Below are positions 24,491-64,000 of a DNA stretch of 64,000 bases, one piece after another. Made by a program: the position numbers and the translations under genes. The notes beneath the pieces were generated by a model that was not told where the DNA came from, ran no database searches, and was given only the letters and a program-made list of their open reading frames with translations. The DNA comes from Takakia lepidozioides (Eukaryota > Plantae > Bryophyta). The stretch spans positions 45,260,001 through 45,324,000 of the forward strand of contig CM060731.1 in NCBI GenBank assembly GCA_030704615.1. The letters run 5' to 3'. Positions within the stretch are counted from its first letter, which is position 1. Each line of letters opens with the position of its first letter.

Positions 24491-24499
24491 GTTGGGTGA

Positions 24500-28141: not shown

Positions 28142-28872
28142 CCTGGCAGCTGCAGCTTATCATGGCGCCGCCGTGGCAGTCTTGACCCTCACACTCGAGG
28201 ATCCCTCCGGCACTACACCTCCCACTATCTCCGCAGAAGATGAAGTAACCTCCCCACTCTCACAAAGTGTAGCTGCTAGCCTAAACACCTTAGCTGGTCT
28301 TACCCCCGGCGTCGCAATTAGGGTAGCCGAGAACAATGGAGCCTGGCACACAGTTGTGGCCGCCCCCAGCAGCATACTAGCTGCCGTAGCCTTGGCAATA
28401 CTAGGTAGTGGTGCTGCCCGTGTAGCTCTCCCCGATGGCATAGTAACCTCTGCCTCGGTAACAGTCGTGCAAGAACTAGGTGCCATGGATGGTGTCGACA
28501 CTATCTCCGCCAATGTAAATGACTGAGGAAGCCTGGCCTGACGGCTTGCCTCCCCACGTTGTGGATCCAACTCCACCTCCGCACCCCGTGGCTCAGGAAC
28601 TCGTGCCGCTCCTCGAGTCACTACCGCAGTTGACTCCACTTGCACTAGTGGTAGTGCTGCCCCGCTCATAGTGGTAGTGGTAGTGGCACCCCTCACTAGT
28701 GGTAGTGGGGCCCCCACCATAGTGGTAGTGGTAGTGGCACCCCTCACTAGTGGTAGTGCTCCACACATGAATCCCATGCCTCCTAAGTCTCATCCCTCAT
28801 GAGCAGGAGGTGGACCATCCGGCCTTGGAGCCGGTACCACTTGAGCTGTGGCCATGGCAGTGAGTCTCTGTT

Positions 28873-31312: not shown

Positions 31313-31314
<2 letters not shown>

Positions 31315-31359
<45 letters not shown>
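31315..31359. repeat. 45-nt poly(T) tract in the element leader
   Basis: Direct reading. Confidence 0.95.
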
Positions 31360-32911: not shown

Positions 32912-33598
32912 TTTCGTTCAGCCATATTGTTGAAAACTGCCTTGCATCCTTAATGCACCCACATTTGGCGTATATGTGCACCAGAGCAGTGTTCAGAATG
33001 ACATCTGGTACAATTCCAGCTTTGACGATGTCATCATGAACCTCTTTCCCCTTTTCCAGGCTTGCACACATATTGCAAACACAAACAAACGTGATGTGGA
33101 TGGGCTTCACCTCTCGTGTGCACCTGCTTTCCAGCTTCAAGGCCTTTCATCTTGATGCACTTATGCAAGAGACAGACATACATATCTGAATCTGCTGAAA
33201 TTCCTCCTTGGTTTAAAGTCTGTAGAGCCTCTTTTAGTCTGTCTGCCTCACAAAACATCTTCACATGCCCAGAAGTGCCAGAAGAGGCATTGTGGACTCC
33301 CTCCCTTGATCCTCTTCCAGAAGTTGTGGTCAGGGTTGAGGTGCCTGATTTTATCAACTGTGCCGTCAACTGCTGCCTTTAATTGACCATCTACGCATGC
33401 AGGTTTCTTGTAGCTATTGATCCACAGGAAATCATACGTAATATTATGCTTGAAATCTGGCCCTCTTCGATATCTGGACCCACGCTTTATCCCTTTTCCT
33501 TCAGCTATCCATGCCTCTGCACAAATCATACATTCATCTTTGCCCTTGCTGCTAGCAGCTGACAATGACAGCCTAGATTTGTTCTCGGAAACACCCAA
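32912..33598 (-). pseudogene. 5' part of the PPR-DYW pseudogene
   Basis: MFCEADRLKEALQTLNQGGISADSDMYVCLLHKCIKMKGLEAGKQVH; PDVILNTALVHIYAKCGCIKDARQ; rejoins 22689 across the insertion. Confidence 0.85.
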
Positions 33599-38340: not shown

Positions 38341-41300
38341 TTAACGTTTCTTCCGCTTTTGAGGTCGCTCTTCGAAAGCTGCAACCGCCTCGGATGCGTT
38401 TCCCATTTCTGAGGCACGCACCCAAGATGCCTCCACATGATGATAGCCCTTCCATTTCACGAGATACTCTGTTTCTCGATTCTTGAACCGCCTCGACTTA
38501 AGCACTGCCTCCACCTCGTACTCAGGTTCATTTTCATGATCCAACAGCACATGTGGCGGACGCAACACTTGATGCCGATTCGGAAGCGCTTCATCTTTGA
38601 AGTAAGGCTTAAAAAAGGAGACGTGGAATACCGGATACACCTTGTTGTTTGCCGGCAGCTCCAATTCATACTCCTCCTCATTCATAACCTTCCGGATGCG
38701 AAAGGGTCCCGCATACGAAGGTACGAACTTCGGACTCACTTCCGGAGGTAGTAAAAAATTCTTGATGTTCAACCAGACCTCCGTGTCTGCCTCAAACTTG
38801 ACTTCCCTCCACTTCCGATTTGCCTGCCGTTCATACCGTTTCCTAGCTTTAGCGATGTTGTACTTTGCGAGCTTCAACAAGTGCTCGCGTTCCTCCAACA
38901 CCGCTGCTGCTGCCGGTTCCTCAACGTCTTGGGCAGCCCAACTTGTCGGCACTAGAGGTGCTTTTCCATAGACCAATACAAAAGGGGAAACACCCGTTGC
39001 GGAGTGTTTTGTGTTATTATAGCAGAACTCTGCCGCGTCCAAGTGCTCCACCCAGTCCGATTGGTCCGCCGATACGTAATTCCGCAAGATCTGCTTCACC
39101 ACGGAATTCACCCTTTCCGTTTGGCTGTCCGTCGTAGGTCGGAAGGCGGTGCTCATCTTGAGCCTCGTCCCCATCTTCTTCCAAAGTGCCCTCCAAAATT
39201 TACTCGTAAACTTTGGATCGTGGTCCGAGACAATATCCTTCGGGAGTCCATGATGCTTGAGGACGTGGGCGAAGTAAAGTCGCCCCGTCTCTTGTGCCGT
39301 TGCCGTCTCCTTGGTGGGGATGAAATGGCCCATTTTACTGAACCTATCCACCACCACCATGATTGCATCAAATCCTTTTGACAGCGGCATAGCAGTCGTG
39401 AAATCCATCGAGACACTTTCCCAAGACCCCTCTGGAATTGGCAAGGGTTGTAACAGCCCCGCTTGCTTTTTGTACTCGCTCCGGTTTTGTTGGCATGTGG
39501 TGCATGTCTTGACATACTCCTCGGCCTCCTCCCTCAGTTTGGGCCAGAAATACTCTTTCTTCAAGAGTGCCGCGGTGTGCTTGGCTCCGCCGTGGCCCGC
39601 AAGCGGACCATCATGGCATTCTCCTAAGAGACTATCTCTGATCCCTCACTTTAGCACGTAGAGACGCTTTTGCTTGTACCGGAGCACTCCATTTTGCAAG
39701 TGGAATTGCGATTTAACCCCCATCCTCAAGTCCCGCATCACGGACTTCGTCATCTCATCCTTCTGGTAAGCCTTCCGGATCTTCCTTTGGATCGCCGTCT
39801 CGCCCCTGTACACCATCATGAGTTGCTGCTTTCTACTTAAAGCATCGGCCACCACATTGTCCCGTCCCGGTTTGTACTGGATATCCACGTCGAACAGTGC
39901 CAAAGTGTCTTGCCACCTAATTTGTTTTGGGGACAACTTAGGCTGCGTGGCAAAATACTTCACCGTGACATTGTCCGTGAACACCTTCACCGGGTTGGAA
40001 CCAATATAGTGGTGCCAAAGCTCAAGGCAATGCACCACCGCCTTCATTTTCTTTTCATGCGTAGGCCACTGTCGCTCTACTTCATTAAGTTTCTTACTTT
40101 CGTAAGTCACTGGACGTCCATTCTGCATGAGTACACCTCCTATAGCGAAGTCTGACACATCCGTATGAATCTCAAATGGACGGTCGAACTCCAGGATTTT
40201 GAGGACTGGAGCTCACGCCATCCCCTGCTTCAACTCGGCAAAAGCTTGACCACAAAAGGTGTTCCATACCCAGACTTTGGATTTACACAGAAGGTCGGAC
40301 AGCGGCCCCGCGATCTTGGCGAAATTTCTCACATACTTCCGGTAATATGATGCGAGTCCCAGGAAGGATCGCACTCCTGGGACCGAAGTCGGAGGCTCCC
40401 AGTCCAAGATCGCCCTCACCTTTCTGTCATCCATTTTGATCCCATCCTGTGTAATCACATGCCCCAGGAACTCCATTTTTGTGACCCCGAATTCGCACTT
40501 TGAAGCTTTGGCATACAGTTTCCCTTCCCGCAATTTCTGGAACACCCTTTTGAGGTGCTCCAGGTGCTCTTCCTTTGTTTTCGAGTACACCAGTATATCG
40601 TCGATGTATACGATCACAAAGTCATCCAACCACTCCTGGAAAAGGCTATTCATTAGCGTGCTAAAGGTCGCGGGTGCGTTGGTGAGCCCAAAAGGCATCA
40701 CCAAGAACTCAGACAAACCATATCTTGTCTTGCACGCGGTCTTCTCCTCATCTCCTTCCACCACTCGGATCTGATGATACCCGGAGCGCAAATCGATCTG
40801 GCTGAAATACTTCGCTCCTGCCAATCGATCGAAGAGGTCGTGGATCCTTGGCAAAGGGTACCGATTCTTGATAGTCACCTTATTCAGGGCCCTGTAATCG
40901 ACACACATCCGCAACGTCCCATCCTTCTTGTCTGCGAATAGCACCGGGGCTCCGTAAGGTGACTTACTCGGCCAGATGTACCCCTTTGACATTAGATCCT
41001 TGAGCTGAGTCTTCAGCTCAACCAACTTTCTGTGGCTCAACCGGTAGGGCGCCTTGGCAGGCGGTTCTGATCCCGGCATCACCTCAATCTTGTGGTCAAC
41101 TCCCCTTCGCGGTGGCAAGCCGCTTGGTAAATCCTCTGGCATCACATCCTGGTATTTCTCCAAAATCCCCTTGATCCAATCTGGGCTCGGCTCCCCATCG
41201 CCTTCTCCCTTCACTTGTCTTACATAAAGCAAAAAGTGGGGCTCGTGTGATTTCTCCACGGCCCACTCCCTTGCTAACAGAAGGTTTATTTGCCATCCCA

Positions 41301-41679
41301 CGGGGTTGGGCGTTTCTGACACTCGTAAAACTTCGCCACCATTCCCACATGGTAGCGTGACTACTCTCTTGCGGCCATCTATAACCGCTCCGGATCTGCT
41401 AAAAAAGGTCATCCCCAAAATGAGTTCCACTCCATCGATCTCGCAAATGGTGAAGTTCTCACGTCCCTCCCAACTCCCGAGCTGAAGAGGGACATCGAAC
41501 GCCAACCTCGTCGCCAATTGTGGTTCTCCTTTAGCAGAACGCACCTCAATAGAGGCCCCCACATCACTTGTCGGGAGTCCTAGCTTCCGTGTCGTTGCCG
41601 GTGTCATGAAGGAGTGCGACGCTCCTGTGTCCACCAACAACAACATGTTAGTTCCGGAGATTATCCCACTCACAAACAT
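38341..41679 (-). pseudogene. pol: protease-RT-RNase H-integrase-chromodomain (few lesions)
   Basis: [49 protein letters not shown], chromodomain EYEVEAVLKSR..YLVKWKGY..SW. Confidence 0.95.
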
Positions 41680-41691
41680 TAATTGACTCCC

Positions 41692-42904
41692 TTATTGCAA
41701 GGCGTCAGTTTCCTGATACAACTCACAAGAGTAGTTGCCTACCTTGCAAGTCTTGGCGACCACCGCCTCCACCAAGCGGCTGATGGAAGCTTCGGACAAC
41801 TCCGTGGTTGCCCGAGTCATGTTCAATTGTCGGGGATTCGTACACTTCTTGGCCATGTGCCCGGGCTCCCCACAATTGAAGCACACTCCATCGAAGGTCG
41901 CCTTTTGTCGGCCATAAAGCGTCGCACTTGATTTTCCTTTCGGAGCATCGGGTGTTGTCTTGGCGTGTGAAGGCCCTCCCTTTGATTTCCACGTGCCATT
42001 GGAGCCGCGTGGCCTATCCCACTTCTTTTCCGGTCGAAAGGAGTCACCCTCCCTCCGGGTCTTCTTGTGGTTCAGCTCCGTACGGCCTTGTCTTTTCGCC
42101 CCTAGGGACATCCGAGAAACATTCAGCCCTCTCAATTGCCTCGTTCAAAGTCTTAGGTGGCTTCTCCTCCAACTTCCGCCTGGCCCATGGGGCCAGTCCC
42201 GCCACAAAGTTGAAGACCATTTCTGGTTCTGCCATGTCCGCGACTTCGAGCAACAACACATTGAAAGCCTGAACATATCCCCGAATGTCATCCGTTTGCT
42301 TCAGATTCCTCATCTTGTCCCGGGCGAGCCAGGACGCGTTGAGGGGCACAAACTATCTCTTCATCAGTTCCTTGAACCCACTCCAGTCCAAGGTTTCCGG
42401 GTTTGGACCTCGGTCATGAAGGCGTTTCTGCCACCATTGTTGAGCATAGCCCCTCAAATAGGTGGGAGCCACTTCCACCTGATCCTCGTCACTCAACTTG
42501 GCCGCCCGAAAGTACTGCTCTAGCTCCAAGAGCCAGGTGTTGAGTGCCTTCCGATTTTGGACGCCCTCGAAGGTGTCGGGTTCCTTAGGCTTCACCTTAA
42601 ACTTTGCCTTAGTGGAAGTGGCATTAGTCGCCTTCAACACGTCTTTCAACGTCCCGCCAAACTGCGCCAACAACCCTTCCCAAAAGGCTGCTGGCATAGG
42701 AGGCATCTATTGGTCTGTCGGAGCTCTCAGAGATTCCTCGGGCTCTGACTCCTCAGATTCCTCCCGTTCTTGAGTGGCCTCATTTTCAAAAGCATGCATC
42801 GCTTCCTCAAATGGCCGCTTCGGTGACACGTCGCCCCCATCGGGCTCACCAAGATCATCATCTTTCGGGCCGTTCCGCTTTTGCTTTGGCTTGCCCGACC
42901 CCAT
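41692..42904 (-). pseudogene. gag with CCHC knuckle
   Basis: PKEPDTFEG..LNTWLLELEQYF..YLRGYAQQWW; CFNCGEPGHMAKKC; stops and a frameshift. Confidence 0.9.
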
Positions 42905-45461
42905 GATGAGGCCGATCCCAAGGACGATCGCGTACTGAACTCTAAGATCTGATACCAAATGTTGCGCACCTCACTTCGGTAAGCTCCCCTTCAAGTCATA
43001 GTTACTCGCTTTGATGCGCGCGCCTAACTCCCAACCTGGCCGCTGGGCCAACTCGGAGCTTCGGCTGCTCATCGGGACATAACGGTCCCCCTTTCTTCCC
43101 CCAACAGACCCTCCACCAATTTGGGCCTAGTGGAAATTCCCTTTGGTAGATGGCAGTCCGGAATAGCTCCCCACTCCTTGGTCGCTTTCCGGCTCGCTCA
43201 TTTACTCACTAGTTTTTGGTCACCAACGGGCTTGCACCGTTCTCGGGGTTACTACTCCCTATATATACTTCCGTGACTATCCGTGGGGGTTTCCCAAACA
43301 ACCATGCCATTTTATGGTGAACCACCACACCCACGACTCCCCATGACTCCCGCCACAAGGTCTCCGCCCCATGGTGAGTCCTATGCCACCCCCACTAAGT
43401 CCCACTAAGCTACCACCACCCCTTGTGGAGCCACCCCCACCGCAACCCGGTGTGCGGGGCTCCACCTAGTGAGCGCCTCCGCCTCCTTGAGTGCCTTGGG
43501 CACTCAAGGGTACTTCAGCCCCCCGTACCTATTGCTGCCACCGCCCCCACCACAGGGGCAGCCCCTCTGCGTCCCGATCCCTGCCCTCAAGGCAAAGGGC
43601 TGCGACATATGATGTGAAGAGGCAAAGGTGGAACCCCTAAGCCAGACAATGATCAGCACAAAATGCCAAGATATACTGCTCACACATCTGCCCTTGCTCG
43701 ACGCAAATCCCAGGAGCGTGTTCTACCAGGTGAACTAGCGTCTCCCCCTACAGTTGCCACCCCCAGTCACTTCAATAGGCTAGGATAGTCTACTCCCACC
43801 AAGGAGGAGGATAGCTAGAGAATGTCGACTGATCAAGAGTGTTCTTTAAACCCAACGCCATGCATACTTGTCTCTAGATGCCCTTTGTCTGCTCTAAGTA
43901 GATATGATGGGTATGATCTAAACTATAGCAGGGTCACAGGTTCTCTTGGGTTCAGCCACATCAGGGTATGGAGCTCAGCCCCAAATTGCCTTTGCTTTTG
44001 TGGGTAGACATTACTTGAAGGACAATGTGTGCTAGAGTAGAAGAGACAATGGCAGCTCTTAAGTGGACAGAGCGTCAAAAGTACTGCACTTTTTTCAGGT
44101 GTGAAGGCAACAAACCCAGTTGGCTTCCTAAAGTTTAAAGACCAGTGCATTTTCAAATCATAACTCGTAAAGACTATACCACTGATTCATTGGCATCTAA
44201 GATGGGTGTGAGTGCCCATTTCTTACTCAACGATGTACTTAGCAAAGAGGTTGTTGGGATTAGTCATGGCCTTAAACTCTAGAGAATTCCCACTCCTGTC
44301 TTTTGAAAACATGGTCCACTTCACACATAATAAAACAAACTGCTTCAATCCCAAAAGAAAAAAAGATGGTATAAGACATGGTGGTTTAAGAACTCCAATC
44401 AAGTATGATGCATTCAAATGTACAGGTGCATTTGTTAACATTACGAAGCTCGCTCTGCTGAATAAACATGGCAGAAATTGATCAGTGAAACATAGAATTT
44501 GGGAACATGCCATGATGGAACTCGTTGGTGCTGGCCGAGATGTATGACAGCTACATGTTGCCAAAACTGAAGCTGCTCAAATTTTGAAAATTATACTTTG
44601 AATACAGCGCGACTTCATCTAAGAAAATGGACGTAAGTACCTGCTTTCCAGGTTGGTCCTTGAAGGGTATGTGAGGTTCAATGATGAACTGGATGCTCGC
44701 CACACTGACGCGATCTGGCAATGCCAGAAAATCGGGCACTAGTGTGGCACAGGAACGGGGTCCCCATCTGTCTCCCCAAACAAACACATGAACTTAAGCC
44801 AAACGTTGACCTTGGCTAAAGCCAACTGATCCATACATACTCAGACTCACCATCAGATACGTGGCTAGAAGTCTGTCAAGTTTGACCTGCTTCATTTTCA
44901 AGCAAAACGTAACCAATTCCAGAAAGGTTGGAGGCCTAGTTATCAACAGCGTTTGCAGTGGAAAAAGCATTGTAGTTGTGCACCTCGTGACATACCACCT
45001 ACAGTGCATTCACACATCTAACTCATTTGAGAAATGATCATACCTTCTGTATTTGATACAAATTGCTCCTCATACATAAAGAACACTGCATCTAAGAAAA
45101 TTTCCAGTGGCAAAATGATGCCCCGCAAGGACGGCTACAAGGAAGGGCTGTAACTAGTATGTATATTGAGCCTGGATCGCAGTGCTCTGGTCAGCAGGTC
45201 AGCAGGTGCTTGTCTCATGGATTCAAAAATGTAGGTACAAGCAAATAATTTTTTTTGGATACTTGGTGGCCAAAAAGGTTTAAATCCACCCAAGTTTTTT
45301 ATGATCGACCTTCTGGACAACCCAAAATTCTGCACAACAAAAACTACTAATTGTGATCAAGCATGCTATTGGCAGTTGAATTGAAAGTGGATTGACTACC
45401 CCTTAATATTAAGTAGTTCTTCTAAAAGAGAAGGAGTTGGAATACTATGTTTAAAAACACT

Positions 45462-46646: not shown

Positions 46647-47568
46647 ATGATCAGAGGCGTCCTTCTGCGAGGGAAGATGAGGAGCATTTGCCTGCGATAT
46701 CACCTTATGTTCTGGATGCACTGCTTTTCGTTCCACTGATCATTCTTTAAAAAATAGTAAAATTCATTCCATAAGTCTATTGTCACTTGTCAAAAAGGAT
46801 CTTGTACTATTTTGCAAGTCTGTCCCGACTTACCGATGAGCGGTCTCTGACTTTCTGAATGATCTTCTAGTTTGTTTTTGCTCATTGTTCAGAAATTGCA
46901 AGACCAATTTTTTTTTGGTATTTTCCTATTTTATGACGTTCACCGAGGTGGTGTGCTTGAAGTTGGAAAGTCATGCCAAACGCATTTCATGGTGGGATGG
47001 GAATCGGTAAGTTTGTGCAGACTTATGGTATATAATAGTACAACATCCGACAAGTCTGTGAAGACTTCTCAAGTGCAACTTCTGGAAAATTAAAAAGCTC
47101 ATAACATTAAATACATACATATTAAACTTACATAATAGATAGCAGGTATAAAATAGGCATACGAAGTATGTGCCGACCTCTCGGAAATGGACTGTCCGTC
47201 ATCATGAAATCATAAATGATCAAACTTGTCCGCGGTTATACAATGAAGGCCTATTTCTGTGGTAGCTGTCACGGACATAGCCCATGTCATGGACATAGCC
47301 CAGAGGAATTTACCAGGAGTAAATATCAGAAGTTACCAAGTTATCATGTTACCACGAGTTACCATGATCTACCATGATCTATCATAAGTTACATTTAGTT
47401 ACCAAGTTACCGGGAGTTTACCAAATTACCGAGAGTAACTTGGAAAATTGCTCATGAAGCTTCTTTTGGAGGAAACTTCTCTATCAAGATACCTCTTTTG
47501 TTTAAGGAAACTTCTCCATCAAGAAACCTCGTTTGGGGAAGCATCTTAGGGAATCTCTTAGTAGCCAG

Positions 47569-47576
47569 TATATATA
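47569..47576 (+). promoter_or_regulatory. TATA box of 5' LTR
   Basis: tatatata conserved in all three LTR copies (~6431, 47569, ~52896), ~25 nt upstream of the PBS-complementary motif. Confidence 0.7.
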
Positions 47577-47926
47577 GGAGGCGAGACTGGACACTCTTCA
47601 GTCTCGCCAACACAAGTTCAAGCTACTCTTGTTCTCAGTCCCAGTACTTCAGTCCAGCTTCCAGTACTCTAGTTCAGTTTCCAGTATCTGGTACCCCAGT
47701 CCAATTTCCAGCATTCCAGTATTCGAGACGAGTTCTAGTATCTTGTACTCTTGTCCATTGTTATAAAGATCATCTTGATTCATGTTTACCCACTATGCAT
47801 TTAGTCACGCCGACCTTGACTTCTTGTCTAGTCTTGTATCTCTAGTCTAATCTCTTGTTTGTATTCAGTCCTGTTCTTGTCCTTGACAGTTTGGCGAGAC
47901 TAAAGTTTGTTCCTTAGGTAGTGAAG

Positions 47927-50900
47927 ATGGAAGACACATTTGAGGAAATGGTCGCCACATTGCAAAGTCTTCAGCTCCAGATGCAATAACTTCGTACATC
48001 TACCGCCCAATTGCAAGCTGATCAGTCTCAAGATCTTGGCAACGCTCTCCACAATTTGTAACAACAAATTTCAGAGTTAAAGGAGTCAAACAATGGATCT
48101 TCAACCATACGAGTCCCTACTGCAACGGTTCATCTTCAATAGATTACGAGAAAACCAAAGATCAGCATGCCCGAGAAATTTGATGGGATGAGATCAAGAT
48201 TTCGCGGTTTTGTTCAACAAGTACGACTGTTCCAACGACTACATCCACAACGCTGCCCCGATAAAGGTATTCAAGTGGGATTCGTGGACACTCTTCTATC
48301 AGGCACTGCCCTATCTTGATTTGCACCGCTATTAGAAAAAAAAATTGCATTTACTATATAATTTTGAAGCATTCATGTCCGAGTTCACTGCAACGTTTGA
48401 AGAGAATGATAGAGAGAGAGTTGCAGAGACAAAGATACGAAATCTTCGACAAGAAGCACGTCCTGCTTTCGTTTATGCTGCCAAATGTCGACAACTTACG
48501 TGCGACCTCGACTGGAATGAGAAGAGCCTCATTAGTCAGTTTCTATGTGAGCCAAAAGAGGATGAAAAAGATTTATTGTTGACTATGCCAAACGTGAGCA
48601 CACTGAGTGAATTCATCACCCAAGTCATTGCATGCGATAATCGTTTGTTCGAAAGACGTCAAGAGAAGCGATCTGGATGGTCGACGACGCATCATGTCAC
48701 TGCTACTACGGCACTAAACACAACGATCCATTAGACATCTGGTAGTGATCCTATGCATATTGATGTTGTCCCGACTCAAGCCATTGACGCCACAAGAAAA
48801 ACAAAGACGACGCTTGAATGGATTATGCCTTTATTGCAGAGAAGAAGATCACATAGCATTAAACTGCCCCAACAAGAGAAGATTCAAAGCTCGGGGGCAC
48901 AACTCAAGCGTTCGATACGAGGAGGTTGGAAAACGAAGATGTCCAGTCATAGTAGGGACCATGCGGCTGGACACCACAAATTCCTCACCAAAAAAATGTC
49001 TCTTTCTACCTCCAGACCCAGCATCTTGCTTCACAGTTTCGGTAAAAATCAGAGTGCAAAATCGAGATATCTCTGTAGAAGCACTTTTGGACTCAGGGGC
49101 TTCAGCTTGTTTTCTGGACAAAAACTTTGCGAAACAACACAATTTAACGCTCGTAAAGAAGAAACTCTCAACCCCCGTTGAAGTCATCGATGGACGACTG
49201 TTAGCATCAGGAAATGTGGACCATGAAACTCGACCACTTGAAGTAAAGCTTAAAGATCAAGCATCACATATTGTTTTCAACGTCATCCAATTTCCAACGA
49301 ATCCTATGATCCTTGGACTTCCCTGGTTTGTACTTCACAATCCTGACATCGACTGACGATCGTGAAAAAATTCTGCAAGACAAAAATGTAGAAATATCAA
49401 AGGTATTCACCTCTGTTCCTTGGAGCTAGAGCTTTCATGAGATGTACAAAAAATGATACGACATTTGCACTTTATGCGACTCCGATCAAGACCACAACAA
49501 ACAAAGGTACTTCAACATTAGCCGCTCAATATCAAGATTTCAAGGATGTCTTCGAGAAGAAAACTGCAGACATATTGCCAGAACATCGACCTTATGACTG
49601 TGCAATTGAATTACAAGAAAGAGTTCAACCACCATTTGGCCCAATCTATAACTTACCCCAGACGGAGTTGGCTGCATTACGTAAATACATTGATGAAAAT
49701 TTGTCGAAGCACTTCATCCGACATTTAAAATCACATGCGGGGGCGCCTATCTTGTTTGTGAAAAAGAAAGACGGATCATTACGCATGTGTATAAACTATC
49801 ACGGTCTCAACAAAGTCACAATTAAGAATCGTTATCCGTTGCCGCTGATTTCTGGGCTTCTTGACCAGCTGGGACGAGCGAAGATTTGCACCAAAATTGA
49901 ATTGAGAAGAGCTTATAACTTTGTACGGATAAAAGAAAGAGACGAATGGAAAACAACTTTTCGAACAAGATATGGACATTTTGAATACAGTGTTATGCCT
50001 TTCGGTCTTATAAATGCTCCAACAATTTTTCAACATATGATGAATGACATATTTCGAGAATTTTTTAGATGACTTTGTAGTCATCTATTTGGACGACATT
50101 TTGATATTTTCACAGAATGAAGAAGAACATGGCCGCCATGTACGCCTTGTCCTTGATAAATTAAGAGAAAGAAGAATATATGCCAAGTTGGAAAAATGTA
50201 TTTTCCATCAATTTGAGGTTGAATTTTTGGGCTACATTATTTCCGACAAAGGCGTCTTTATGGATCAGAAGAAAATACAAACCATCATCGAGTGTATTAA
50301 ACCAACTTCGGTCCGAGAGGTACAATGTTTTCTAGGATTTGCAAATTTCTATAGAATCTTCATCAAGGACTACTCCAAAATTGTTGCACCATTGACACGA
50401 CTCACAAGGAATGACAAATTTGTATGAGACGAGAAGGCTGACCAGACATTTGAAAGGCTGAAACAGATATTTATAACGGCTCCAATACTGGTACATGCAG
50501 ACCCATCTAAACCATTCTTCTTGGAAGCAGATGTATCGGACTTTGCACTTGACGCTATACTCTCTCAATACGGTACGGATGACAAACTTCACCCTGTTGG
50601 TTTTCGTTCTTGCAAATTTTCTGCTGCAGAGATCAATTATGAAATCCATGACAAAGAACTTCTAGCGATCATCGATGCTTTTTAGGAGTGGCGTCATCTA
50701 CTAAAGGGAGCTAAACATCAAGTCACTGTCTACACCGATCACAAAAACCTTGAATATTTTATGAGTGTTCGTGTTTTGAATTGACGTCAAGCCAGATAAG
50801 GTATGTCACCAGCAAGGTTTAATTTTGTTATTACCTATCGCCTCGGACATCTTCAAGGGAAACCCGATGCTCTTTCTCGACGATCGTATCTTGCGCCGAA

Positions 50901-52441
50901 AAAAAAAGAGACAGCTTTCCATCAACAGAAATCCATTATCTTGAAACCAACAAATCTTCAATTGAATATGTTATCCATGTCCACCTATGAAGATGCTGAG
51001 ATCATAAAGGAGATTCAGGAAGCACTGAAGAACGACTAGTTTGCTACGACACTACGAAGTCAACTTGATCGACCTTGAGACAACCCACATGTTACAAACG
51101 ACTTCGAATTCGAAGATGACTTATTTTATTTCAAGGGACTTCTCTATGTACCTCCAGAACCTACACGACTTTGAATTCTTCAAACATGTCATGATCTTCC
51201 GGTTGTAGGACATTTCGGCTTTAACAAAACAATGGAGTTGATATCAAGGGACTATTGGTGACCGCAGATGTGGAAATTCGTGAAAGAATTTATAAAATCT
51301 TGCGACACGTGTGCTAAAGCGAATGGACCACGACAATGACCTTACGACCTTCTTCAACCATTACCCATTCCCAAGGGTCCATGGTCGTCCGTGTCTATGG
51401 ACTTTATTATGGACCTTCCAATTTTCAAGACCATTGATTCAATCCTTGTTATTGTAGATGGTTTTACGAAGATGATACATTTCATTCCATGTAATAAGAC
51501 GGTTACCGACGAGGAAACTGCAAGACTCTTCCTCAATAATATCTACCGCATTCATGGACTCCCGAAGGACATTGTATCCGATCGAGGATCACAGTTCATA
51601 TCAAATTTCTGGAGGAGATTATTTCACATATTGGATACTAAGATCAACCTCTCTACAGCTAATCATCCATAGACTGATGGTCAAACCAAACGTGTAAACC
51701 AGATTTTAGAACAATATATTTGCTGTACGATAAATTATCACCAAGATAATTGGACGGACCTTCTGTCAACGGTTGAGTTTGCCTACAACAACACTATACA
51801 TTCTTCGACCAAACAAACTCAATTTTTCTCCAATTATGATCATCATCTTCGAGCAAACCCTTTCCACATGAAGACTGTTAGAAGCCATGCTGCAGAAAAC
51901 CTTGCTACTCATCTTGCTACGATTCACAAGAAGCTTATATTTCACCTCGCAGAAGCTAAAAACAATACAATGAGTATGCAAATCAACATCGCCAACTCCA
52001 ACCCCAGTTCAAGGTCGGAGATCACGTGTGGCTTCTTCGACGGGACATACAAACCTTGCAACCATCAAGGAAGTTGGATTACCAACGCCTGGGACCATTC
52101 AAAATTATTCGACAAATAAATCCGGTTAGTTTTTGGCATGAACTCCCACGAAGTATGCGCATCCATAGAGTCTTTCATGTTTCATTATTGGAGTTGTATC
52201 ATCCATCGAATATTCCAGTGAGAGTCTTCGTACCACCTCCATCAATCGAAGTCAATTAGGAAATCGAGTATAAAGTCGACAAAGTCGTAGACTCTCGCAT
52301 CAAGTACATAAACGTCTTGAGTTTTTCGTACATTGGAAAGGCTACGACATCAGCGAACGAATGTGGGAACATTCATCCAACCTTGCCAATGCATCTGACC
52401 AAGTCCAAGAGTTTCATCAACGATATCCAGCTAAGCCCTGA
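47927..52441 (+). pseudogene. gag-pol with C-terminal chromodomain
   Basis: ISMPEKFDG, CLYCREEDHIALNC, LLDSGAS, YLDD, PDALSRR, SMDFI..IVSDRGSQF, EYKVDKVVDSR..FVHWKGYDISERMWE; many nonsense changes. Confidence 0.94.
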
Positions 52442-53484
52442 GCTACACGTCAATAAGACGACACAACGACGATGTCAGCCAAGTTAGCTTCAATGTGAAG
52501 ACTCCACATTCAATGTATCTGATACACACTAAGGAGAGAGGTTCTTCAACTCTAAGCAAATCCAAGATTTTACCGCTCCTCGAGGAACTCGGTGCTAGAG
52601 GAGGGGGTGATGTCACGGACACAGCCCAGATAAACTTACCAGGAATAAATACCAGAAGTTACCAAGTTATCATGTTATCGAAAGTTACCGTGATCTATCA
52701 TGATCTATTATAAGTTACCATTAGTTACAAAGTTACCGGAAGTTTATCAAATTACCGAGAGTAACTTGGGAAACTGTTCATGAAGCTTCTTTTGGAGGAA
52801 ACTTCTCCATCAAGAAACCTTTGTTTAACCTTGGAAACTTCTCCATCAAGATTCCTCCCTTGGGGAAGCCTCTTAGGGAACCTCCTAGTAGCCAGTATAT
52901 ATAGGAGGCGAGACTAGACATTCTTCAGTCCCGCCAATACAAGTTCAAGCTACTCTTGTTCCCAGTCCCAATACTCCAGTCCAGCTTCCAGTACTCTAGT
53001 CCAGTTTCCAGTATCTGGTACCCTAGTCCAGTTTCCAGCATTCCAGTATTTGAGTCGAGTTTCAGTATCTTGGACTCTTGTCTATTGTTATAAAGATCAT
53101 CTTGATTCATGTTTACCCACCATGCATTCGGCCACGCCGACCTTGACTTCATGTCTAGTCTTGTACCTCTAGTCTGATTCTTGTTTGTGTTCAATCATGT
53201 TCTCGTCCTTGACAGTAGCCCCATGACTTGTTTGGAAAACCAGAGTATTGTGGAAGTCGACACCGACTTCTAAATTTAGGAGAACCCCCGAACCTACATA
53301 CGCATCCAAACCTGCCTCCAATATCATGTTATTCGGGGACATCTTGGATAATTTAACTGCAAAAAATGCCGAAATGCAGCTCCACAGGGTCTAAAATGAG
53401 GAAATATTTTTCCAAATATGCTCTGCTCATGTTTACTTTTGCTTCTGCTCATGCTTAAATGTGCTCATGACTCATAGAAAATAT

Positions 53485-57119: not shown

Positions 57120-57900
57120 ATGCTGATGAATCCACCATACTTAACTTTTTTTGAGTTTTGTAAACTGAATGCAACCCAACGGTTTTGTCAAGATGTTTGT
57201 CATTTGTTCCTTAGTTGGAATGTAGTGACTCCCAGTGATGAGGAGGTCATCTACATAAATGACCATGATCAAGATTTTCCCGTCCTCAGATATAGGATAG
57301 GGGTATGTTCACGCAGGAAAGTATCAATTTTCTCATACCATGCACGGGATGTCTATTTTAGGCCATAAAAAACCTTGTGGAGTTTTATAGACCTTGCGTG
57401 CGGAGACTTCAAATCCTTGAAGTTGGATGAGGTGGCGCACATGGACCTCCTTCAAGTCCCCGTTTAGGAATGCGGATTTGATATCCATGTGAAGATTGTC
57501 CCAATCGGTGCTGGCTACAAGACCCACCATGCTGCGAATTGTACTCCACTTTGCTGGGGCAAACGTCTCATCATAATCAATACCTCCTTGTTGTTCATAT
57601 CCTTTTGCTACTAGCCTTGCCTTGAGTTTGATAGGTTGACCATCAGAACCAGCCTTCACTTTGTAAACCCACTTGGAATGAATGGGTCGTTTCCTGAGGG
57701 GTAAATCTGTGAGGGACCAAGTCTGGTTGTGAGAGATGGAGGTCATCTCCTCTTCCATAGCAAATAACCCATCTAAGGTTAAAACCCGCATGATAGAGAG
57801 GCTTTGACTGGCTCATCAAGGAAATCATGCTCAATTTCAATGTTGAAAACTAAATGATCCCTCAGTCGGGTGGATGGTGCTCTTGAACGTGTGACGCGTG
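57120..57900 (-). pseudogene. Ty1/Copia reverse transcriptase remnant
   Basis: KRPIHSKWVYKVK..KLKARLVAKGYEQQGGIDYDETFAP..HMDIKSAFLNGDLKE. Confidence 0.92.
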
Positions 57901-57911: not shown

Positions 57912-60502
57912 TGTCGTGCGCATACATATCGCTACACAACTACATCACTGTCCAAACTACACAACATATGTGCACACCAAATACTAGTCTATCACTAGTG
58001 CACCACTAGTGCACCAGCAGTGCACCACTAGGCTGCCACTAGACAACCACTAGTCACCATTAGTGCAGCCACTAGTCAACCACTAGGCTGCCACTAGGCA
58101 CCACTAGTGCAGCCACTAGTCCATCACTAGGCTGCCACTAGCCACCACTAGTGCAGCCACTAGTCCATCACAATCGCCCCCCTAGCTGGCGCTTAGGTCC
58201 CTCTAAGTCCAGGTAGCCATAAAATGTGATAGTGGCCATAGCCTCACTAGGTCCTCCACCACTGTCCCTACTACACTCAAACTCAATAGATCAAGAGGCC
58301 GGGTACAAGAGTTGCCCCATCGTTAGTCACCGTCTTGCAACTTGTGAACTTGAGCTTGAGATCTTGGGTATTGACTCCTATGAGCTTGGCCTCCCATGTC
58401 TTGTGAGCTGCCACTAGTCATATCCACTGCCACTATCCCAAGCAGGGTGGACATAACCAATCTCCATCAGGAACCCTCTCAAGAGGTGGTGTCAAGCATC
58501 CCATGTGCCAACCTCTTGAGCATTGATCACACACCAGCATAGTGGCGGCACCACGAGCATGCCCACATAGCATACAACGCAACCCTGCAAGTACCAGTGC
58601 AAGGGTGGGATCTATCCTCCCATCCACATGTGGAAGGTGACATGGCGCACAATTACGCACATGGTCCTTCCATACCATGCCATCTCGACCCTCCAGAAAT
58701 CAACACTCTTAAAGGCAACACCTCCCTGACCCTTAGAATCACACGTCCTGCTGTGACATCCAAGGTCGTAGGCGCAGTCTGCTGCAGATACACATAGTCC
58801 CCAAGGTGGAAACGCCGAACACTTGACCGATATCCCCCTCCACGTATAGTGGCATACCTCAATGTGTCTTGATGTTGGGCAATAGCAAGATTCTCAAAAG
58901 CCATAGGTATGACTCTCTGGAACAACTCTGCCCGCTGGGCACATGCTTGTGTCCACACATCCGGATCATTAAGGTTGAGGACTACTACAGCCTCCCTGCA
59001 AATAGACGCAGGCAAATCTGGCTCTCGGCCAAAGAGAAGGAAATATGGTGAGAAGGAGACAAGTGATGCTTGCTTGCTAAACCTGTAGCCCATGGCTAGC
59101 CAAGGTACATGAAGATCCCAATCTCCTATGTGTCCCTTTTGCAAACCATACTTGCGCAAACCCCTCTTCACTGTCTGAACCACTCTCTCTGCCAAGCCAT
59201 CGGTCTCAAGATGATCCCGAGAAGTGGTACGGTGGTCTATCAAGGCTTTATCACACAAAGCCTGAAACTCCCCCAAGAACTCTCTTCCTTGGTCCGTGAG
59301 TACCTCAGCTGGAGCACCGAATCGGCTAAGCACACGATCCAAGAATGCATACGCAGCCCCCTTACTAGCCTTGTCAGGCAATGGAACCAACTCAATCCAC
59401 TTGGAGAAGTGCTCCACCATCACCAACACATATCTATGGTGACGCATCGTGAGTGGCAAAGGCCCTGCGAAGTCAAGACTCCACCTGTAGCCCAATCCCA
59501 TGATGGGTAAAGGATGCAACTGTGGTGTAGGGGCGTTGAATGAAGCACGCACCCATGCACCTAGCCACGAACTGTTGCACCTCTGTGTGCATACCACACC
59601 ACCAATACTGCCCCTGTAGTAAGGGAGGGCCGGCGTGTGCAGCTCCCTGTGACGTTCATAGGAGGAGTTGCGGTTGCCCAGCGAGGCAAGATGCCAACAC
59701 TGGCAGCATTCACAGCTGCAATGACTTGGATGACAACACTCATTCAGATGATGTGTCACCTCCAGGAGAGCAAGATGACATGTATGGTATGACGGAGTTG
59801 CCTGCCATGGTTGCTCACACTCCATGGTGGGGCTTGAGCAAGGATTTGCAGCGGGTTGCTGATTGTCGTGTGCAACAAGCCTGGGTAGAGGCTTTTGTAC
59901 CGTCAGGAGAGGAGGACGGTGCGGGGATTGCACCAAGACCACCTCAGTTGTCTCCATTGGACACCACACCGATCGTGTGGAAGTGTCCGGATGAAGGCAT
60001 TTGCCTTCTGGACTTGTTTGGCGGGATCAGCACCGGATTGGCTGTTGTTCTACAGGCAGGTGTACGAGTACAGCGTTAGTTGTATGTGGAGAGGGATGAG
60101 ACTGTACGATGCGTCTCCCTACGCCATATTGCTCAGTTGGTGCAGCAGTACCCTGAGTTGTTGCCGGTGTCTGCAGTTCGTGGATATCAGCAGGCCTTGC
60201 CTCTAAGTCTGCTCGACTTAAGGTTGTAGTTACGAAGGGCAATTGGGAGCCTGACATTGGACCTATTGTTGCTAGAGGAGAGAGACGGCGTATACGGCGG
60301 TTCCCGAGGCTTACAGGAATTGCTTTGTCTCTCGTGCTACGGTGGAGGAGCATGAGAGACATGTTCAGGTTGTGCATCGACCGGGTTTGGTCAATAGGGA
60401 TGTGGATGGATTGAGTCGCAATCCATGCACGAGCCAACAGGATGACACTGGAGTTTGGTGGCATGGTGAGATGGACGAGGAGATGGTGTCGGGATGGCAT
60501 GC
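57912..60502 (-). mobile_element. Second MTase/PHD-Gypsy copy, rearranged (3' LTR 57912-58172, INT-PHD to ~59621, inverted and deleted MTase/RT/RH pieces to 60502)
   Basis: 57912-59621 matches 22690-24420; 59617-60202 is the reverse complement of ~27085-27690 (EGICLLDLFGGISTG on +), then pieces matching ~25898-26025, ~25308-25336, ~24502-24627. Confidence 0.9.
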
Positions 60503-61123
60503 TGTCGCACGGCTTTTACTCACCCATCCCTTCGCTATCCGAGGCGGAAACTCCAAGATAGAAGAGTTGGAAATCTCTAAGTACTCAGCCCGCGCAGAAC
60601 AATCAGTCATGACCTACAGCTAGTGTATCATGGGGGTGTTTCCTATTTGTTTCCTTTTCCGCATTCATCTTAGCTACCTCACCATTGATAATTAAGTATC
60701 AGTTTGCTTCATCAATTTATCGGTTTCCTTAACTCCTCCATTCAATCCACAGCTTCACTCAGATCTCTCTACACAGTGTGATTGTATCGTATAAGTATCA
60801 GATTATGATTTATCAGGTATCAGGCCGAATCCATTATGTCTCTAATCTGCTCTACAATATCACTCTAGCTTTGCATATGACAAGCATCTACTAATCCTCT
60901 TTTCTCCTTCATCGTGCTCTCCGATCTCCGCTCCCGCCTGTCTCCGAAGTCCTCCCCGAATAATGATCCCCTTCCTATTCCCCGTTCTTTCCTTTATCCT
61001 CCTATCCGCGGTTCTAACCGTTTCCCTCTCTAACCGTCGTATGTGAACTAACATGTTCCCTTCACTGGTGTTGTTCCCCACAGTCGTTCCCTGTCCTACT
61101 CTTCGTTCCCTATTATCGTGACA
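60503..61123. mobile_element. Probable LTR of another element
   Basis: Starts TGTCGC exactly where RNase H homology stops, ends CGTGACA; no TSD or partner in window. Confidence 0.45.
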
Positions 61124-61443
61124 GCTGTGTCAAGCGGTGACTGGCTGTGTTTGGCTGTGTCGGGCTGTGACTGGCTGTGTGGCTGTGCCGGGCTGTGACT
61201 GGCTGTGTGGGCTGTGTCTGCTGTGACGACTGTGACGGGCTGTGTGGGCTGTGTGGGCTGTGACGACTGTGTGGGCTGTGACGACTGTGACGGGCTGTGT
61301 TGGCTGTGTGGGCTGTGACGGCTGTGTCGGCTGTGTGGGCTGTGACGACTGTGACGGGCTGTGTTGGCTGTGTGGGTTGTGACGACTGTGACGGGCTGTG
61401 TTGGCTGTGTGGGCTGTGACTGCTGTGTTGGCTGTGTGGGCTA
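61124..61443. repeat. 9-bp-period minisatellite (ggctgtgtg / gactgtgac variants)
   Basis: Direct reading. Confidence 0.92.
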
Positions 61444-61585
61444 TGTAACCCCCCTCTACAGTGCGCTGCTGTCACCCCTAAGGTTCCTGTTTGTCTCAGT
61501 CTGTGCAAAAATTAAGGGTACCCTACAGATCCCGTATAAGTGTCTAAGTCCCCTACAGTCCTCTAACATTACCCCTTCCCCCCTC
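61444..61585 (-). mobile_element. Short 3' LTR (61444-61568, 125 bp) and PPT of an element extending off the right edge
   Basis: TGTTAGAG...GGTTACA on minus, immediately preceded by the purine tract gaggggggaaggggtaa. Confidence 0.65.
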
Positions 61586-61605
61586 AAAAGCCGTGTCCTC
61601 ACGGT

Positions 61606-64000
61606 TTACTGTTTCCGAGTAGCAAGCCTTTGTGAGTGAGCACCTTGTTGACGTTGAGAGTTTCGTGGTGGGCTGTGTGTACGAGCCCGAGGTCTGTCTC
61701 TGGTTGATGGAGATGGTTGATCACTACCTGGATAAGTGAGGCCTTCTGGAGGTTGATATCGAGGTAATCTTTCCGGCATAGGAGATCCCCTTTGTTTCTT
61801 CTCTTCCATCTGAATTGCATAGTCTTCTCCCATGTCAAAAGAATTTTGTGAAGAAACAGTTGTATCAGAATCCTCATCGCCTCTCAGGTGTTTTAATTTT
61901 CGAACTTTTTGTGGAATCATCTGGGGCATACAATGTTGTCCTACCATGTCTGGAAGTTTGCATTTTACAACCTGGTGTAACCGTTGAACAGCAAAATTGG
62001 TATAGACACTGAGCTCCTTGTCTGTCCAGATGAGTGGGGTACCAATTACTGGTGCCGCGTGCAAGTATTTCCATGCGATATGTCCCTTATAGAAAATGTC
62101 ATCAAGTCCAAATTTCTGTGTTGACAAATTGTTGCAGGCTGCTTGAAACCATGAACGAATTTGAGAATCCTTTTGTATCATAACTTTTGGGTCATATAGG
62201 TACATATGAGGTGGCACCGAAGGTAATACCCAATGATCTCCACTGGAGTAACTTTGAAAGCGTGCTTGCATCTTTTGTTGCTCTATGTGGTAACGTATCA
62301 GGAAACAAGCAGCGTAGTATAGCCCGCACCCCATGACAATACTTGCTATCTCCTTGGTCTTGGTATAAATGAGTCCATGTACAACCTGGAAAGCAACCAA
62401 TTCCCTCAACATGGTACCTGCCTCGTGCCAGTATTGTGCAAAGTGATGATCTTCAATATGTCGATTGTTTGGAAGAACTTTAGTCCTGGTTGCCACTGGC
62501 AGCCAGATACGCATGATTTGGTAGTAATGTGCGAATGACTGCGGAGGACTAAATTCTTTCCAAGCCAAATCCAACATGATGGGAATTTGGTTGAAGGGCA
62601 TAATCATAGCCCTACTGTACTCCCTGGCAGCTGGAGTTTTAGGTGGGTTAAAAGCTGCATTGCCCCATACCTCCGGCTGTGGTGGCTGTGGTGTGGTTGT
62701 AGTAACCACAGGTTCAGCTACTGGTACACTGACCTGTTGTGGTGGTGGTGGTACTGGTTCCTGTACCATTGGCATCTCCTGCACCTCCTGTGAAGACTGA
62801 AAAGCCAGAGTTCTGGCTTGCAAATAAGAAGCCATTAGTTGTTCCTGAGGGATATAGACTCTTTGGTCGATGTTTGAAGTGAGGTCTTCCACTTGAGTCT
62901 GGAGTCCGTCTACATCCTCTTGTAGCTCTGCTATCCTACTATAGACATTGTCTATAGTAGTTGTGGCAATGTTCTGCACCTGCAGTCTGAGCTCATTCAT
63001 CTCGCTTTGGGTGAGCTTCCGTGGGCTTTTGCCCTCTACTGGCCCTTGTGCTAACCAGACCTTCATAAGGCTGTTATCCACCAAGCTGCTTGTGGTTCCC
63101 CTGAGAGTTTGCTCCTCTCTTTGCTTATACAATTCCAACTGCTGTTGTAAAGCCTTCATGCGCTTCGCCTGTGGCTCAACCAATTGCGCATAGGCAGCAA
63201 GTAAATTATTGGCTTCTTTCGAAACCTTGTTACTGACCGCGATTTCATTTCTATTGGCCACGATGGTTTGTTGCAACTCCACGATGTATTTCTCATTCTC
63301 AGCTTCCATCTGCCTGTATTGCTTGAAAGTATCTTCATTGCGACAGATTGTATTCTTCATATCGACAATGAGCTTCATGTGCTCCACATTCTCTTCTTCT
63401 GCCTTCGTACATTTTTCCGCTTGACTGTTTATTTCTTTTGTTGATTGGTCAAGCATAGTTGTAAATGTAGCGCATTGTATCTCCATCCTGTTATGCACTG
63501 TCTGCAACTCCGTATGTAGTGCATTCAGTTCTTGTAACTTGCTTTCATGCTTCACCTGCATTTGGTATAGCTGTTGCTTATGTGCTTCGTGCAACTGGTC
63601 TTGCGCAAGGCCTGCTTCAATCAATTGTTGCTTGGCCAATTGCAAAGCCATTTCTGTATTGGCCAAGTCCTGCTTCATCTTGAGAGTGACCTCTTCATCG
63701 ACCTTATTTGAACACTCAGTGGCAAGTCGAGCCTCAAACTCCTTCCTGAGTTCTTCTTTCAAGGCTGTCAATTGGGTAATTGGAACATGGGTTTTGACAT
63801 AAGTCCCCAACAAATTAAGTGTCCTGCCTATGGAATTCATCAGCATTGCCTGTTGAGGGTCATCATGGTGAGGTTGCTGCTGTTCCTCCCGATCTTCAAC
63901 AGTATGATGTCTCACTAACCATTCAGACCATTGTCCCACCGGATTTTCTTCCTGAACTACTTCATTTATGACCGGTGCTACAGTGTCATGGCCTTCCGCC
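61606..64000 (-). CDS. Long uninterrupted ORF (>797 aa, start outside window), coiled-coil protein of unknown function
   Basis: No stop from the window edge to 61606; long E/Q/K/L heptad-rich region, Pro/Thr linker, ~250-aa globular segment, basic Ser/Pro tail; ends ~20 bp before the PPT. Confidence 0.75.
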   Translation of the reverse strand, partial: AEGHDTVAPVINEVVQEENPVGQWSEWLVRHHTVEDREEQQQPHHDDPQQAMLMNSIGRTLNLLGTYVKTHVPITQLTALKEELRKEFEARLATECSNKVDEEVTLKMKQDLANTEMALQLAKQQLIEAGLAQDQLHEAHKQQLYQMQVKHESKLQELNALHTELQTVHNRMEIQCATFTTMLDQSTKEINSQAEKCTKAEEENVEHMKLIVDMKNTICRNEDTFKQYRQMEAENEKYIVELQQTIVANRNEIAVSNKVSKEANNLLAAYAQLVEPQAKRMKALQQQLELYKQREEQTLRGTTSSLVDNSLMKVWLAQGPVEGKSPRKLTQSEMNELRLQVQNIATTTIDNVYSRIAELQEDVDGLQTQVEDLTSNIDQRVYIPQEQLMASYLQARTLAFQSSQEVQEMPMVQEPVPPPPQQVSVPVAEPVVTTTTPQPPQPEVWGNAAFNPPKTPAAREYSRAMIMPFNQIPIMLDLAWKEFSPPQSFAHYYQIMRIWLPVATRTKVLPNNRHIEDHHFAQYWHEAGTMLRELVAFQVVHGLIYTKTKEIASIVMGCGLYYAACFLIRYHIEQQKMQARFQSYSSGDHWVLPSVPPHMYLYDPKVMIQKDSQIRSWFQAACNNLSTQKFGLDDIFYKGHIAWKYLHAAPVIGTPLIWTDKELSVYTNFAVQRLHQVVKCKLPDMVGQHCMPQMIPQKVRKLKHLRGDEDSDTTVSSQNSFDMGEDYAIQMEEKKQRGSPMPERLPRYQPPEGLTYPGSDQPSPSTRDRPRARTHSPPRNSQRQQGAHSQRLATRKQ

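Follow-up and report, generated by a model that had tools for sequence, protein, structure and literature searches.

The window analysed here, the whole stretch of 64,000 nt from Takakia lepidozioides (contig CM060731.1, positions 45,260,001 to 45,324,000), contains two dead copies (copies 1 and 2) and a third, isolated fragment of a Ty3/gypsy retroelement. The integrase (IN) of this element ends in a PHD finger, and a DNMT3-like cytosine methyltransferase is encoded further upstream in copy 1; we lean towards a role of the finger as a chromatin tether of the integrase. The features of the PHD-integrase element are read from the minus strand throughout, a plus-strand reading of 58433-58600 having been rejected because its translation is riddled with stops. 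Copy 1 encodes, in this order, gag, protease (PR), the DNMT3-like methyltransferase, reverse transcriptase (RT), RNase H (RH), integrase and PHD. Near end-to-end cover, from 30117 to 23229 and with many frame changes, was obtained by tblastn with the Marchantia polymorpha gag-PR-DNMT protein P0003 (residues 1-1243) and the RT-RH-IN-PHD relatives P0203 and P0211. The features of the element are as follows (ORF, open reading frame).

58442-58576, minus: PHD finger of copy 2, intact C4HC3, from Cys1 to Cys7 (Pfam and translation)
57914-59615, minus: copy 2, a 5'-truncated fragment with integrase, PHD and 3' end (self-BLAST, alignment and tblastn; 91.6% identical to copy 1)
59616-60201, plus: inverted piece fused to copy 2, derived from sequence that precedes the DNMT domain and extends into it (self-BLAST of 27087-27689 against 60201-59616; tblastn with P0003 788-946)
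22692-30117, minus: copy 1, Gypsy-DNMT3-PHD element with coding content near full length, degenerate (tblastn, ORF frames, limit of homology with copy 2)
27893-30117, minus: gag, CCHC zinc knuckles and aspartic protease region of copy 1 (tblastn to P0003 1-946; jackhmmer mapping of GAG and PR on relatives)
26084-27307, minus: DNMT3-like C5 cytosine methyltransferase domain of copy 1, between protease and RT (Pfam PF00145, E 7e-11)
24499-25996, minus: RT and RNase H of copy 1 (Pfam RVT_1 E 6.9e-31, RT_RNaseH E 1.7e-16; tblastn)
23376-24507, minus: integrase of copy 1, rve core plus C-terminal module, with the PHD in the same frame (Pfam rve E 6.8e-10; tblastn with P0203 653-1082)
23235-23369, minus: PHD finger of copy 1, from Cys1 to Cys7 (translation; ORF stop 23226-23228)
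22692-23225, minus: 3' non-coding end of copy 1, common to copies 1 and 2 (copy alignment; 44/45-bp tandem repeats at 22760-22982)
13947-15113, minus: isolated third fragment from this family, holding the DNMT domain alone (~94% identical to copy 1)

Identity of the finger and state of the copies

The finger of copy 2 is encoded by an ORF at 58436-58699(-) whose C-terminal end reads ...LAGLRCMLCGHARGAATMLVCDQCSRGWHMGCLTPPLERVPDGDWLCPPCLG*, with the stop codon at 58433-58435, and it matches Pfam PF00628 (E 3.2e-11; 43.5 bits, the cut-off being 24). In copy 1, one reading frame from 24344 to 23226 takes in both the integrase core (Pfam rve) and the PHD, with a single internal stop, at 23301-23303, where a TGG>TAG change replaces the Trp before the His; this finger also has CPHC instead of CPPC. 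The Pfam match and the in-frame fusion thus confirm the original prediction of a C4HC3 PHD at the integrase C-terminus, as well as its second copy at 23226-23375 with one TGG>TAG stop. In copy 2, a 1-bp insertion near 58699, absent from copy 1, puts the PHD ORF and the integrase ORF (58656-60026) out of frame with each other. The PHD begins ~17 residues past the ...HVRNCAPCH end of the integrase C-terminal module, and its placement where chromoviruses carry their chromodomain, noted from the sequence, was borne out by the chromovirus integrase found at 38341-39642 of the same window.

The eight Zn ligands are kept in 231 to 241 of 241 aligned sequences (240 relatives and the window), so the C4HC3 pattern is not a product of chance. 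An AlphaFold2 model built from a 61-sequence alignment reached a predicted local distance difference test score (pLDDT) of 91-95 over the finger (residues 41-88), and Foldseek superposed it on DPF2/3, UHRF1, ATXR5, BAZ2A/B and BHC80, among its top 50 matches, with root-mean-square deviations of 0.5-1.4 Å over 45-51 columns. With canonical C4HC3 spacing, a score above the Pfam cut-off and a predicted cross-braced PHD fold, the domain is a genuine PHD finger.

Neither copy is intact. At least six frame shifts and several stops were found in the ORF frames of copy 1, which is therefore a pseudogene. Its gag and CCHC knuckles lie at 28876-30117, with a weak Retrotrans_gag match under the Pfam cut-off (E 3e-4), and its protease region at ~27893-28156. 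The homology of copies 1 and 2 ends at an identical base, ...GCGCACGACA (22692 and 57914), which therefore marks the 3' terminus of the element. The inverted piece joined to copy 2 at 59616-60201 is a rearrangement.

A repeat search found no long terminal repeat (LTR), and no inverted or direct terminal repeat of at least 30 nt, within 22600-33000. Low-stringency BLAST, in which 22000-23400 was compared with 30000-33500 and each terminus with the whole window, likewise revealed no LTR, inverted terminal repeat or split repeat, and neither did a motif scan. At the junctions with a surrounding pentatricopeptide repeat (PPR) gene, ATGT (or GAAA/GAGA) was weighed as a 4-bp target-site duplication and not accepted, since PPR repeats create similar motifs themselves.

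The ratio of observed to expected CpG was 0.37-0.47 in the DNMT-Gypsy copies (22692-30117, 57914-59615), as against 0.78-0.83 in the Gypsy elements at 36707-43607 and 47284-53216. Copies 1 and 2 differ by 104 substitutions, including 81 transitions and 14 changes at CpG. The low CpG content and this substitution pattern would be compatible with methylation-driven decay.

The methyltransferase and its co-occurrence with the PHD

The methyltransferase of copy 1 matched DNMT3A, 3B or 3C in all 29 of its 29 PDB matches at E <= 0.001, in agreement with the DNMT3-like writer that had been proposed for the element. Motifs I (FFGG), IV (PCQ), VI (ENV) and VIII (RPR) were found in it, and neither an ADD nor a PWWP domain was detected in the element by Pfam. 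Among relatives with the DNMT upstream of RT, the motif IV Cys is present in 19/21 and both the E and the N of motif VI in 21/21; in those with the DNMT placed after RNase H and before the integrase, the Cys is present in 82/87 and the E in 83/87. The Pro of the motif IV PC was found as Pro in 20/21 of the former group, whereas in the latter the position is occupied by Glu in 44/87 and by Pro in 27/87.

The distribution of both domains was followed in relatives of the integrase. In an exhaustive HMMER search with the 347-aa IN-PHD ORF, 27,642 proteins passed E <= 0.001, of which 425 passed E <= 1e-30; the analysed set comprises 252 public proteins, namely the best 150 representatives and 102 from a word-indexed search, and their domains were mapped with jackhmmer profiles seeded with the window's own domains. 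Of the 252 relatives, a sample of closest integrases that gives no share of DNMT-Gypsy elements lacking a PHD, 245 have a PHD behind the integrase; the seven exceptions mostly end shortly past the integrase. Where the span permits judging (120 relatives), 117 encode a DNMT. The layouts were distributed as follows.

RT-RH-DNMT-IN-PHD: 113 of 252 relatives
DNMT-RT-RH-IN-PHD, the layout of the window: 4 of 252 relatives
At least 550 residues upstream of RT and no DNMT (P0100, P0166, P0254): 3 of 252 relatives
RT-RH-IN-PHD ORFs beginning just before RT, upstream DNMT not judgeable: 40 of 252 relatives
Too short for a layout call: 92 of 252 relatives

A co-occurrence of PHD and methyltransferase across the family had been put forward as a check, and the two were indeed found together in nearly all judgeable relatives. 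Nevertheless, they are not obligately coupled, because the three DNMT-less lineages keep the PHD.

A DNMT between protease and RT was found in the window, in Marchantia and in P0120, P0211, P0235 and P0280. In a FastTree phylogeny of the IN+PHD region (251 tips, midpoint-rooted), all sequences with the layout of the window fall in one 49-tip clade (Shimodaira-Hasegawa-like (SH-like) support 0.937), made up of 5 tips with the DNMT seen upstream of RT, 35 without a layout call and 9 short ones; the DNMT-before-IN layout does not occur in it. The clade is nested among lineages of that layout, and five tips lacking a DNMT between RH and IN, P0100 (no DNMT at all) among them, form its sister clade. 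In the DNMT tree, the methyltransferases of the two layouts form separate groups, with P0120 as the sole exception. That tree was built without cellular DNMT3 outgroups and would accommodate equally a single capture followed by relocation and two captures.

The named hosts in the DNMT search were Marchantia polymorpha, Sphagnum fallax and Closterium; Haematococcus lacustris, Pleodorina starrii, Tetrabaena socialis and Chromochloris zofingiensis were further named hosts, and the remaining relatives are metagenomic. Close relatives from Marchantia polymorpha are P0001, P0003 and P0210. Among 21 metagenome loci fetched with P0028, 10 span RT to PHD, and in 10/10 of these the DNMT lies between RT and integrase; the PHD is visible in 18/21, the other 3 ending within the integrase. 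In locus L006, RT, RH, DNMT, IN and PHD are encoded by an uninterrupted 2041-aa ORF. All of these loci belong to the distant RT-RH-DNMT-IN-PHD type, with no intact close relative at the DNA level among them, and no repeats of at least 80 nt were found in them, although assemblies may collapse repeats. Intact relatives with the DNMT before the integrase have a tail of ~400 aa past the PHD, and ORFs of 1,900-2,150 aa without any Pfam match are their neighbours (regions L006 1-5727 and 10557-11756; L008 5883-12341).

Predicted histone-contact face and proposed role of the finger

The resemblance to the AIRE, BHC80 and CHD4 fingers that had been noted from the sequence held for the closest solved structures. 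The best 60 of 86 PDB sequence matches were all cage-less fingers (phmmer, best E 9e-14 to 1e-10 against CHD4, KDM5A/B PHD1, ATXR5 and PHF21A). They comprised CHD4/5, KDM5A/B/D and Lid PHD1, ATXR5, PHF21A (BHC80), PHF12, WSTF, DPF2/3, BAZ2A/B and KMT2C/D, as well as KAT6A/B, ORC1b, UHRF1/2, AIRE, Rco1 and Cph2, and no ING, BPTF, TAF3, PHF2/8, PYGO or RAG2 finger was among them. The top 50 Foldseek matches belong to the same group of cage-less readers of the histone H3 tail. The residue two before the Zn-binding His is Gly in the window (Gly-Trp-His), as the original prediction had it, and thus there is no cage Trp; GW occurs in 13/13 members of the window's branch, and Gly or Ala occupies the cage position in nearly all of 232 fingers. 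Sequence and model together support an H3-tail-reader fold rather than a cage reader of H3 trimethylated at K4 (H3K4me3).

PHD fingers that read H3 unmethylated at K4 (H3K4me0) are defined, as described in PMC3241642, by acidic residues clustered on the N-terminal side of Cys1, which bind the unmethylated K4 amine; a hydrophobic residue before Cys3 is reported to be lodged between R2 and K4 of H3. In the KDM5B PHD1 structure as reported in PMC4225485, K4 contacts D308, four residues before Cys1, R2 contacts D328, directly past Cys3, and A1 contacts P347, G349 and W351. The window's finger keeps hydrophobic residues before Cys3, an Asp after Cys3 (MLV-C-D) and P-x-G-x-W (VPDGDW), which align with L325/L326, D328 and P347, G349 and W351 of KDM5B PHD1. 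Among the 241 aligned sequences, the Asp after Cys3 is found in 227, and the P, G and W of P-x-G-x-W in 237, 191 and 228, respectively. The acidic residues, on the contrary, differ between branches, as seen in the number of fingers with D/E in the six residues before Cys1 and in the mean net charge summed over the pre-Cys1, Cys1-Cys2 and loop residues, the predicted K4 face.

13-tip subclade of the window (SH-like support 0.992, n=13): D/E before Cys1 in 2; mean net charge +1.31
Rest of the 49-tip clade with the window's layout (n=32): D/E before Cys1 in 21; mean net charge -0.16
Outside the 49-tip clade (n=187): D/E before Cys1 in 139; mean net charge -3.05

By these comparisons, the loss of acids at the K4 face is a property of the 13-member branch and not of decay. 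Selectivity for H3K4me0 is thus only partly supported: one defining feature is missing in the window's branch, and the algal relatives are a much better fit.

In the reading that we prefer, the PHD would serve the integrase as a chromatin tether, as the chromodomain does in chromoviruses. The finger would dock onto the N-terminal tail of H3 via the Ala1 and Arg2 contacts of cage-less PHD fingers, whereas avoidance of K4me3 is predicted to be weak or nil in the bryophyte-type branch, in which the acids that sense unmethylated K4 are gone. From the conserved contact residues and the modelled fold we infer H3-tail binding and a probable part of the finger in the choice of integration site. The retention of the PHD in the three DNMT-less lineages is as expected if the PHD serves the integrase.

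Several observations weigh against a tether of this kind. In the window's finger, LAGLR precedes Cys1 and HARGAAT lies in the Cys2-Cys3 loop; neither stretch contains an acid, and the branch of this finger has the positive K4 face tabulated above (+1.31), compared with -3.05 in the 187 relatives outside the clade. Given this change of charge, the finger may recognise another ligand or another modification state of it, and a basic face might even be unfavourable to a basic histone tail. The searches for an LTR pair of copy 1 gave none, and activity is not readable from copies that are both dead. In addition, the sample, limited to the closest integrases, is biased towards PHD-bearing ones, since half of the PHD was part of the query.

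The original prediction had gone further, to a strict H3K4me0 reader that cooperates with the DNMT3-like enzyme in an ADD-like manner, with integration and de novo methylation steered to H3K4-unmethylated chromatin. We consider this coupling unlikely. In its favour, the cage Trp is absent in every clade, with Gly two before His in nearly all members, and proven K4me0 readers are among the nearest solved PHDs; a DNMT occurs in 117/120 informative relatives, directly N-terminal of IN-PHD in one ORF in 113 of them, and its catalytic motifs are conserved; and 139/187 fingers outside the window's clade have acids before Cys1, together with a strongly acidic Cys2-Cys3 loop. However, the K4-contacting acidic cluster is missing from the window's branch, although PMC3241642 describes it as defining. 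The DNMT of this branch, placed between PR and RT, is remote from IN-PHD and would likely be a separate protein after processing; moreover, the PHD survives without a DNMT in P0100, P0166 and P0254. Membership in the class of cage-less H3-tail readers stood, but the acidic residues expected before Cys1 did not, only 2/13 members of the branch having any acid there. A possible reader-writer coupling is most plausible for those relatives in which the DNMT, IN and an acidic PHD are contiguous.

A serious rival, even if we likewise assign it a low probability, is that the finger of the bryophyte branch has switched its ligand and binds a non-histone partner (a host factor or a protein of the element), nucleic acid, or H3 through R2 only, as UHRF1 does, and is insensitive to K4 methylation. 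The 13-tip branch (SH-like 0.992) is marked by a conserved P-A-G-[LYWK]-[RK]-C motif and an R/K-rich loop; UHRF1 PHD structures, one of them bound to H3K4me3, are among the closest folds; and some PHDs bind non-histone proteins, as stated in PMC3241642. The residues that contact Ala1 and Arg2 are nevertheless kept, which argues for some H3-tail binding. That the PHD is foreign to the element, whether as an exon captured from the host or as a Cys/His pattern that arose by chance in decayed DNA, is most improbable: both copies are pseudogenes and the PHD of copy 2 is out of the integrase frame, but the in-frame fusion in copy 1, the Pfam E value of 3e-11 and the same IN-PHD arrangement in 245/252 relatives (algae, bryophytes, metagenomes) oppose it, and family conservation already refutes it.

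Beyond the tether itself, a broader and speculative scenario, to which we give little credence as yet, would treat the portable DNMT3-like writer and the cage-less PHD reader as a near-constant pair of a green-lineage Gypsy clade. The algal form would be a contiguous retroelement analogue of ADD-DNMT3 that inserts into and methylates H3K4-unmethylated chromatin, and the bryophyte branch would have moved the DNMT upstream of RT, changed the charge of the K4 face and retargeted the reader.

Genomic setting and relation to known systems

Copy 1 lies inside a PLS-class PPR gene of the DYW type on the minus strand, with E+ and DYW domains at 19394-19930 and PPR repeats up to 22690; the gene resumes at ~32909-33378. 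A gene of this kind points to a land-plant host. The interruption is a 10.2-kb block that holds copy 1, and at both junctions the break lies in the same '...ER[ND]V...' segment of a PPR motif. The 2.8 kb between the gag start and the PPR junction (30118-32908, minus) have no match to the 3' end of the element and no repeat structure, and contain a long (AAG/AAA)n run near 31400; a 5' untranslated region or LTR, or a nested insertion, are candidates for this segment.

Other elements are found in the window. A young chromovirus at 36707-43607(-) has LTRs at 36707-37432 and 42959-43607 (95-98% identical), a CCHC knuckle, PR, RT and RH; its integrase (38341-39642), in contrast to the PHD-integrase, consists of H2C2, rve, SH3_Tf2-1 and a C-terminal Chromo domain (E 1e-12). 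Another Gypsy element at 47284-53216(+) has PR and RT at 48718-52002 and direct repeats at 47284-47890 and 52610-53216 (89% identical), with a partial copy at 6331-7739. A Ty1/copia RT fragment at 57336-57812(-) (RVT_2, E 2.5e-26) adjoins the 3' end of copy 2, which is therefore part of a region of nested transposable elements. At 61099-63999(-), a Q/E-rich 797-aa open frame without a Pfam match leaves the window edge, followed by tandem repeats coding for PTQ/HSPHS (61099-61511).

REM1 of Chlamydomonas (credited to Perez-Alegre, 2005) is said to be a PHD-bearing Gypsy element. PHD fingers in retrotransposons are known in general (PMC6673714; 10.1101/2021.11.30.470311), and Gypsy-7a_cRei of Chlamydomonas has been drawn with a PHD beside the integrase, in the order GAG, PROT, RT, RH, PHD, INT (PMC9940879). 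As far as its figure legend goes, Gypsy-7a_cRei resembles the window element in being a green-algal LTR/Gypsy polyprotein with an integrase-associated PHD, but a DNMT is not listed in the legend (PMC9940879). On the methyltransferase side, Klebsormidium nitens Gypsy elements with DNMT3 have already been described as KnitGypsy-Dnmt3 (de Mendoza et al., 2018, PMC5890265), the label 'Gypsy-DNMT3' of streptophytes is used in bioRxiv 10.64898/2026.05.21.726589, and DNMT3s embedded in retrotransposons of streptophytes and dinoflagellates were reported in a 2025 paper (PMC12344493). Judged by its description (PMC5890265), KnitGypsy-Dnmt3 is likewise a Ty3/gypsy polyprotein of a streptophyte lineage with an embedded, intronless DNMT3-type methyltransferase whose catalytic motifs are kept. 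DIRS-like terminal repeats are reported for it (PMC5890265), and no terminal repeats were found here; its host is Klebsormidium, as opposed to a land-plant-type host here, with the best named matches in Marchantia; no Klebsormidium protein was among the named matches of the protein searches.

The main text and three supplement files of PMC5890265 make no mention of a PHD, although its Fig. 4c, like the other figures outside this check, may show one. In the literature search, which included the PMC5890265 supplements and covered text rather than figures, no text was found that pairs PHD and DNMT in one Gypsy family, and the REXdb survey of plant LTR elements (PMC6317226) mentions neither a PHD nor a methyltransferase. 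With the pol order PR, RT, RH, IN, a DNMT3-type methyltransferase inside and conserved catalytic motifs IV, VI and VIII, the window element has the make-up of Gypsy-DNMT3 and is a dead land-plant-type member of this known family. Since the family and both modules have already been published separately, the present results extend known biology and do not overturn it; what is added here is the quantified co-occurrence of PHD and DNMT, with two positions of the DNMT, and the finding that the branch of the window has lost the acidic K4 pocket.

In chromoviruses such as MAGGY, a chromodomain-integrase steers integration to marked chromatin (Gao et al., 2008, as cited in PMC6673714 and 10.1101/2021.11.30.470311). 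The window element shares with them the addition of a histone-reader domain past the integrase C-terminal module, but its reader is a PHD zinc finger, with no chromodomain detected by Pfam, and the predicted target is the H3 N-terminus rather than H3K9me. KDM5A/B PHD1, ATXR5 and BHC80 (PHF21A) are the best sequence matches of the finger (E 6e-12 to 8e-11) and share its CL.PPL..[VI]P.G.W.CP.C tail and long Cys2-Cys3 loop; they differ in having D/E before Cys1 or in the loop (KDM5A NNED; KDM5B D308), where the window has AGLR and HARGAAT. With the ADD-methyltransferase of animal DNMT3A/3L, the element has in common a cage-less PHD-type H3-tail reader and a DNMT3-type catalytic domain in one genetic unit, whereas in the window-type element reader and writer are set apart by RT, RH and IN, and the acidic K4me0 pocket is gone in its branch. 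Retrotransposons with their own chromatin reader and DNA-methylation writer bear on the choice of landing sites and on the shaping of the host epigenome, and in this family the PHD is an almost universal companion of the DNMT, with a predicted histone-binding face that differs sharply between branches.

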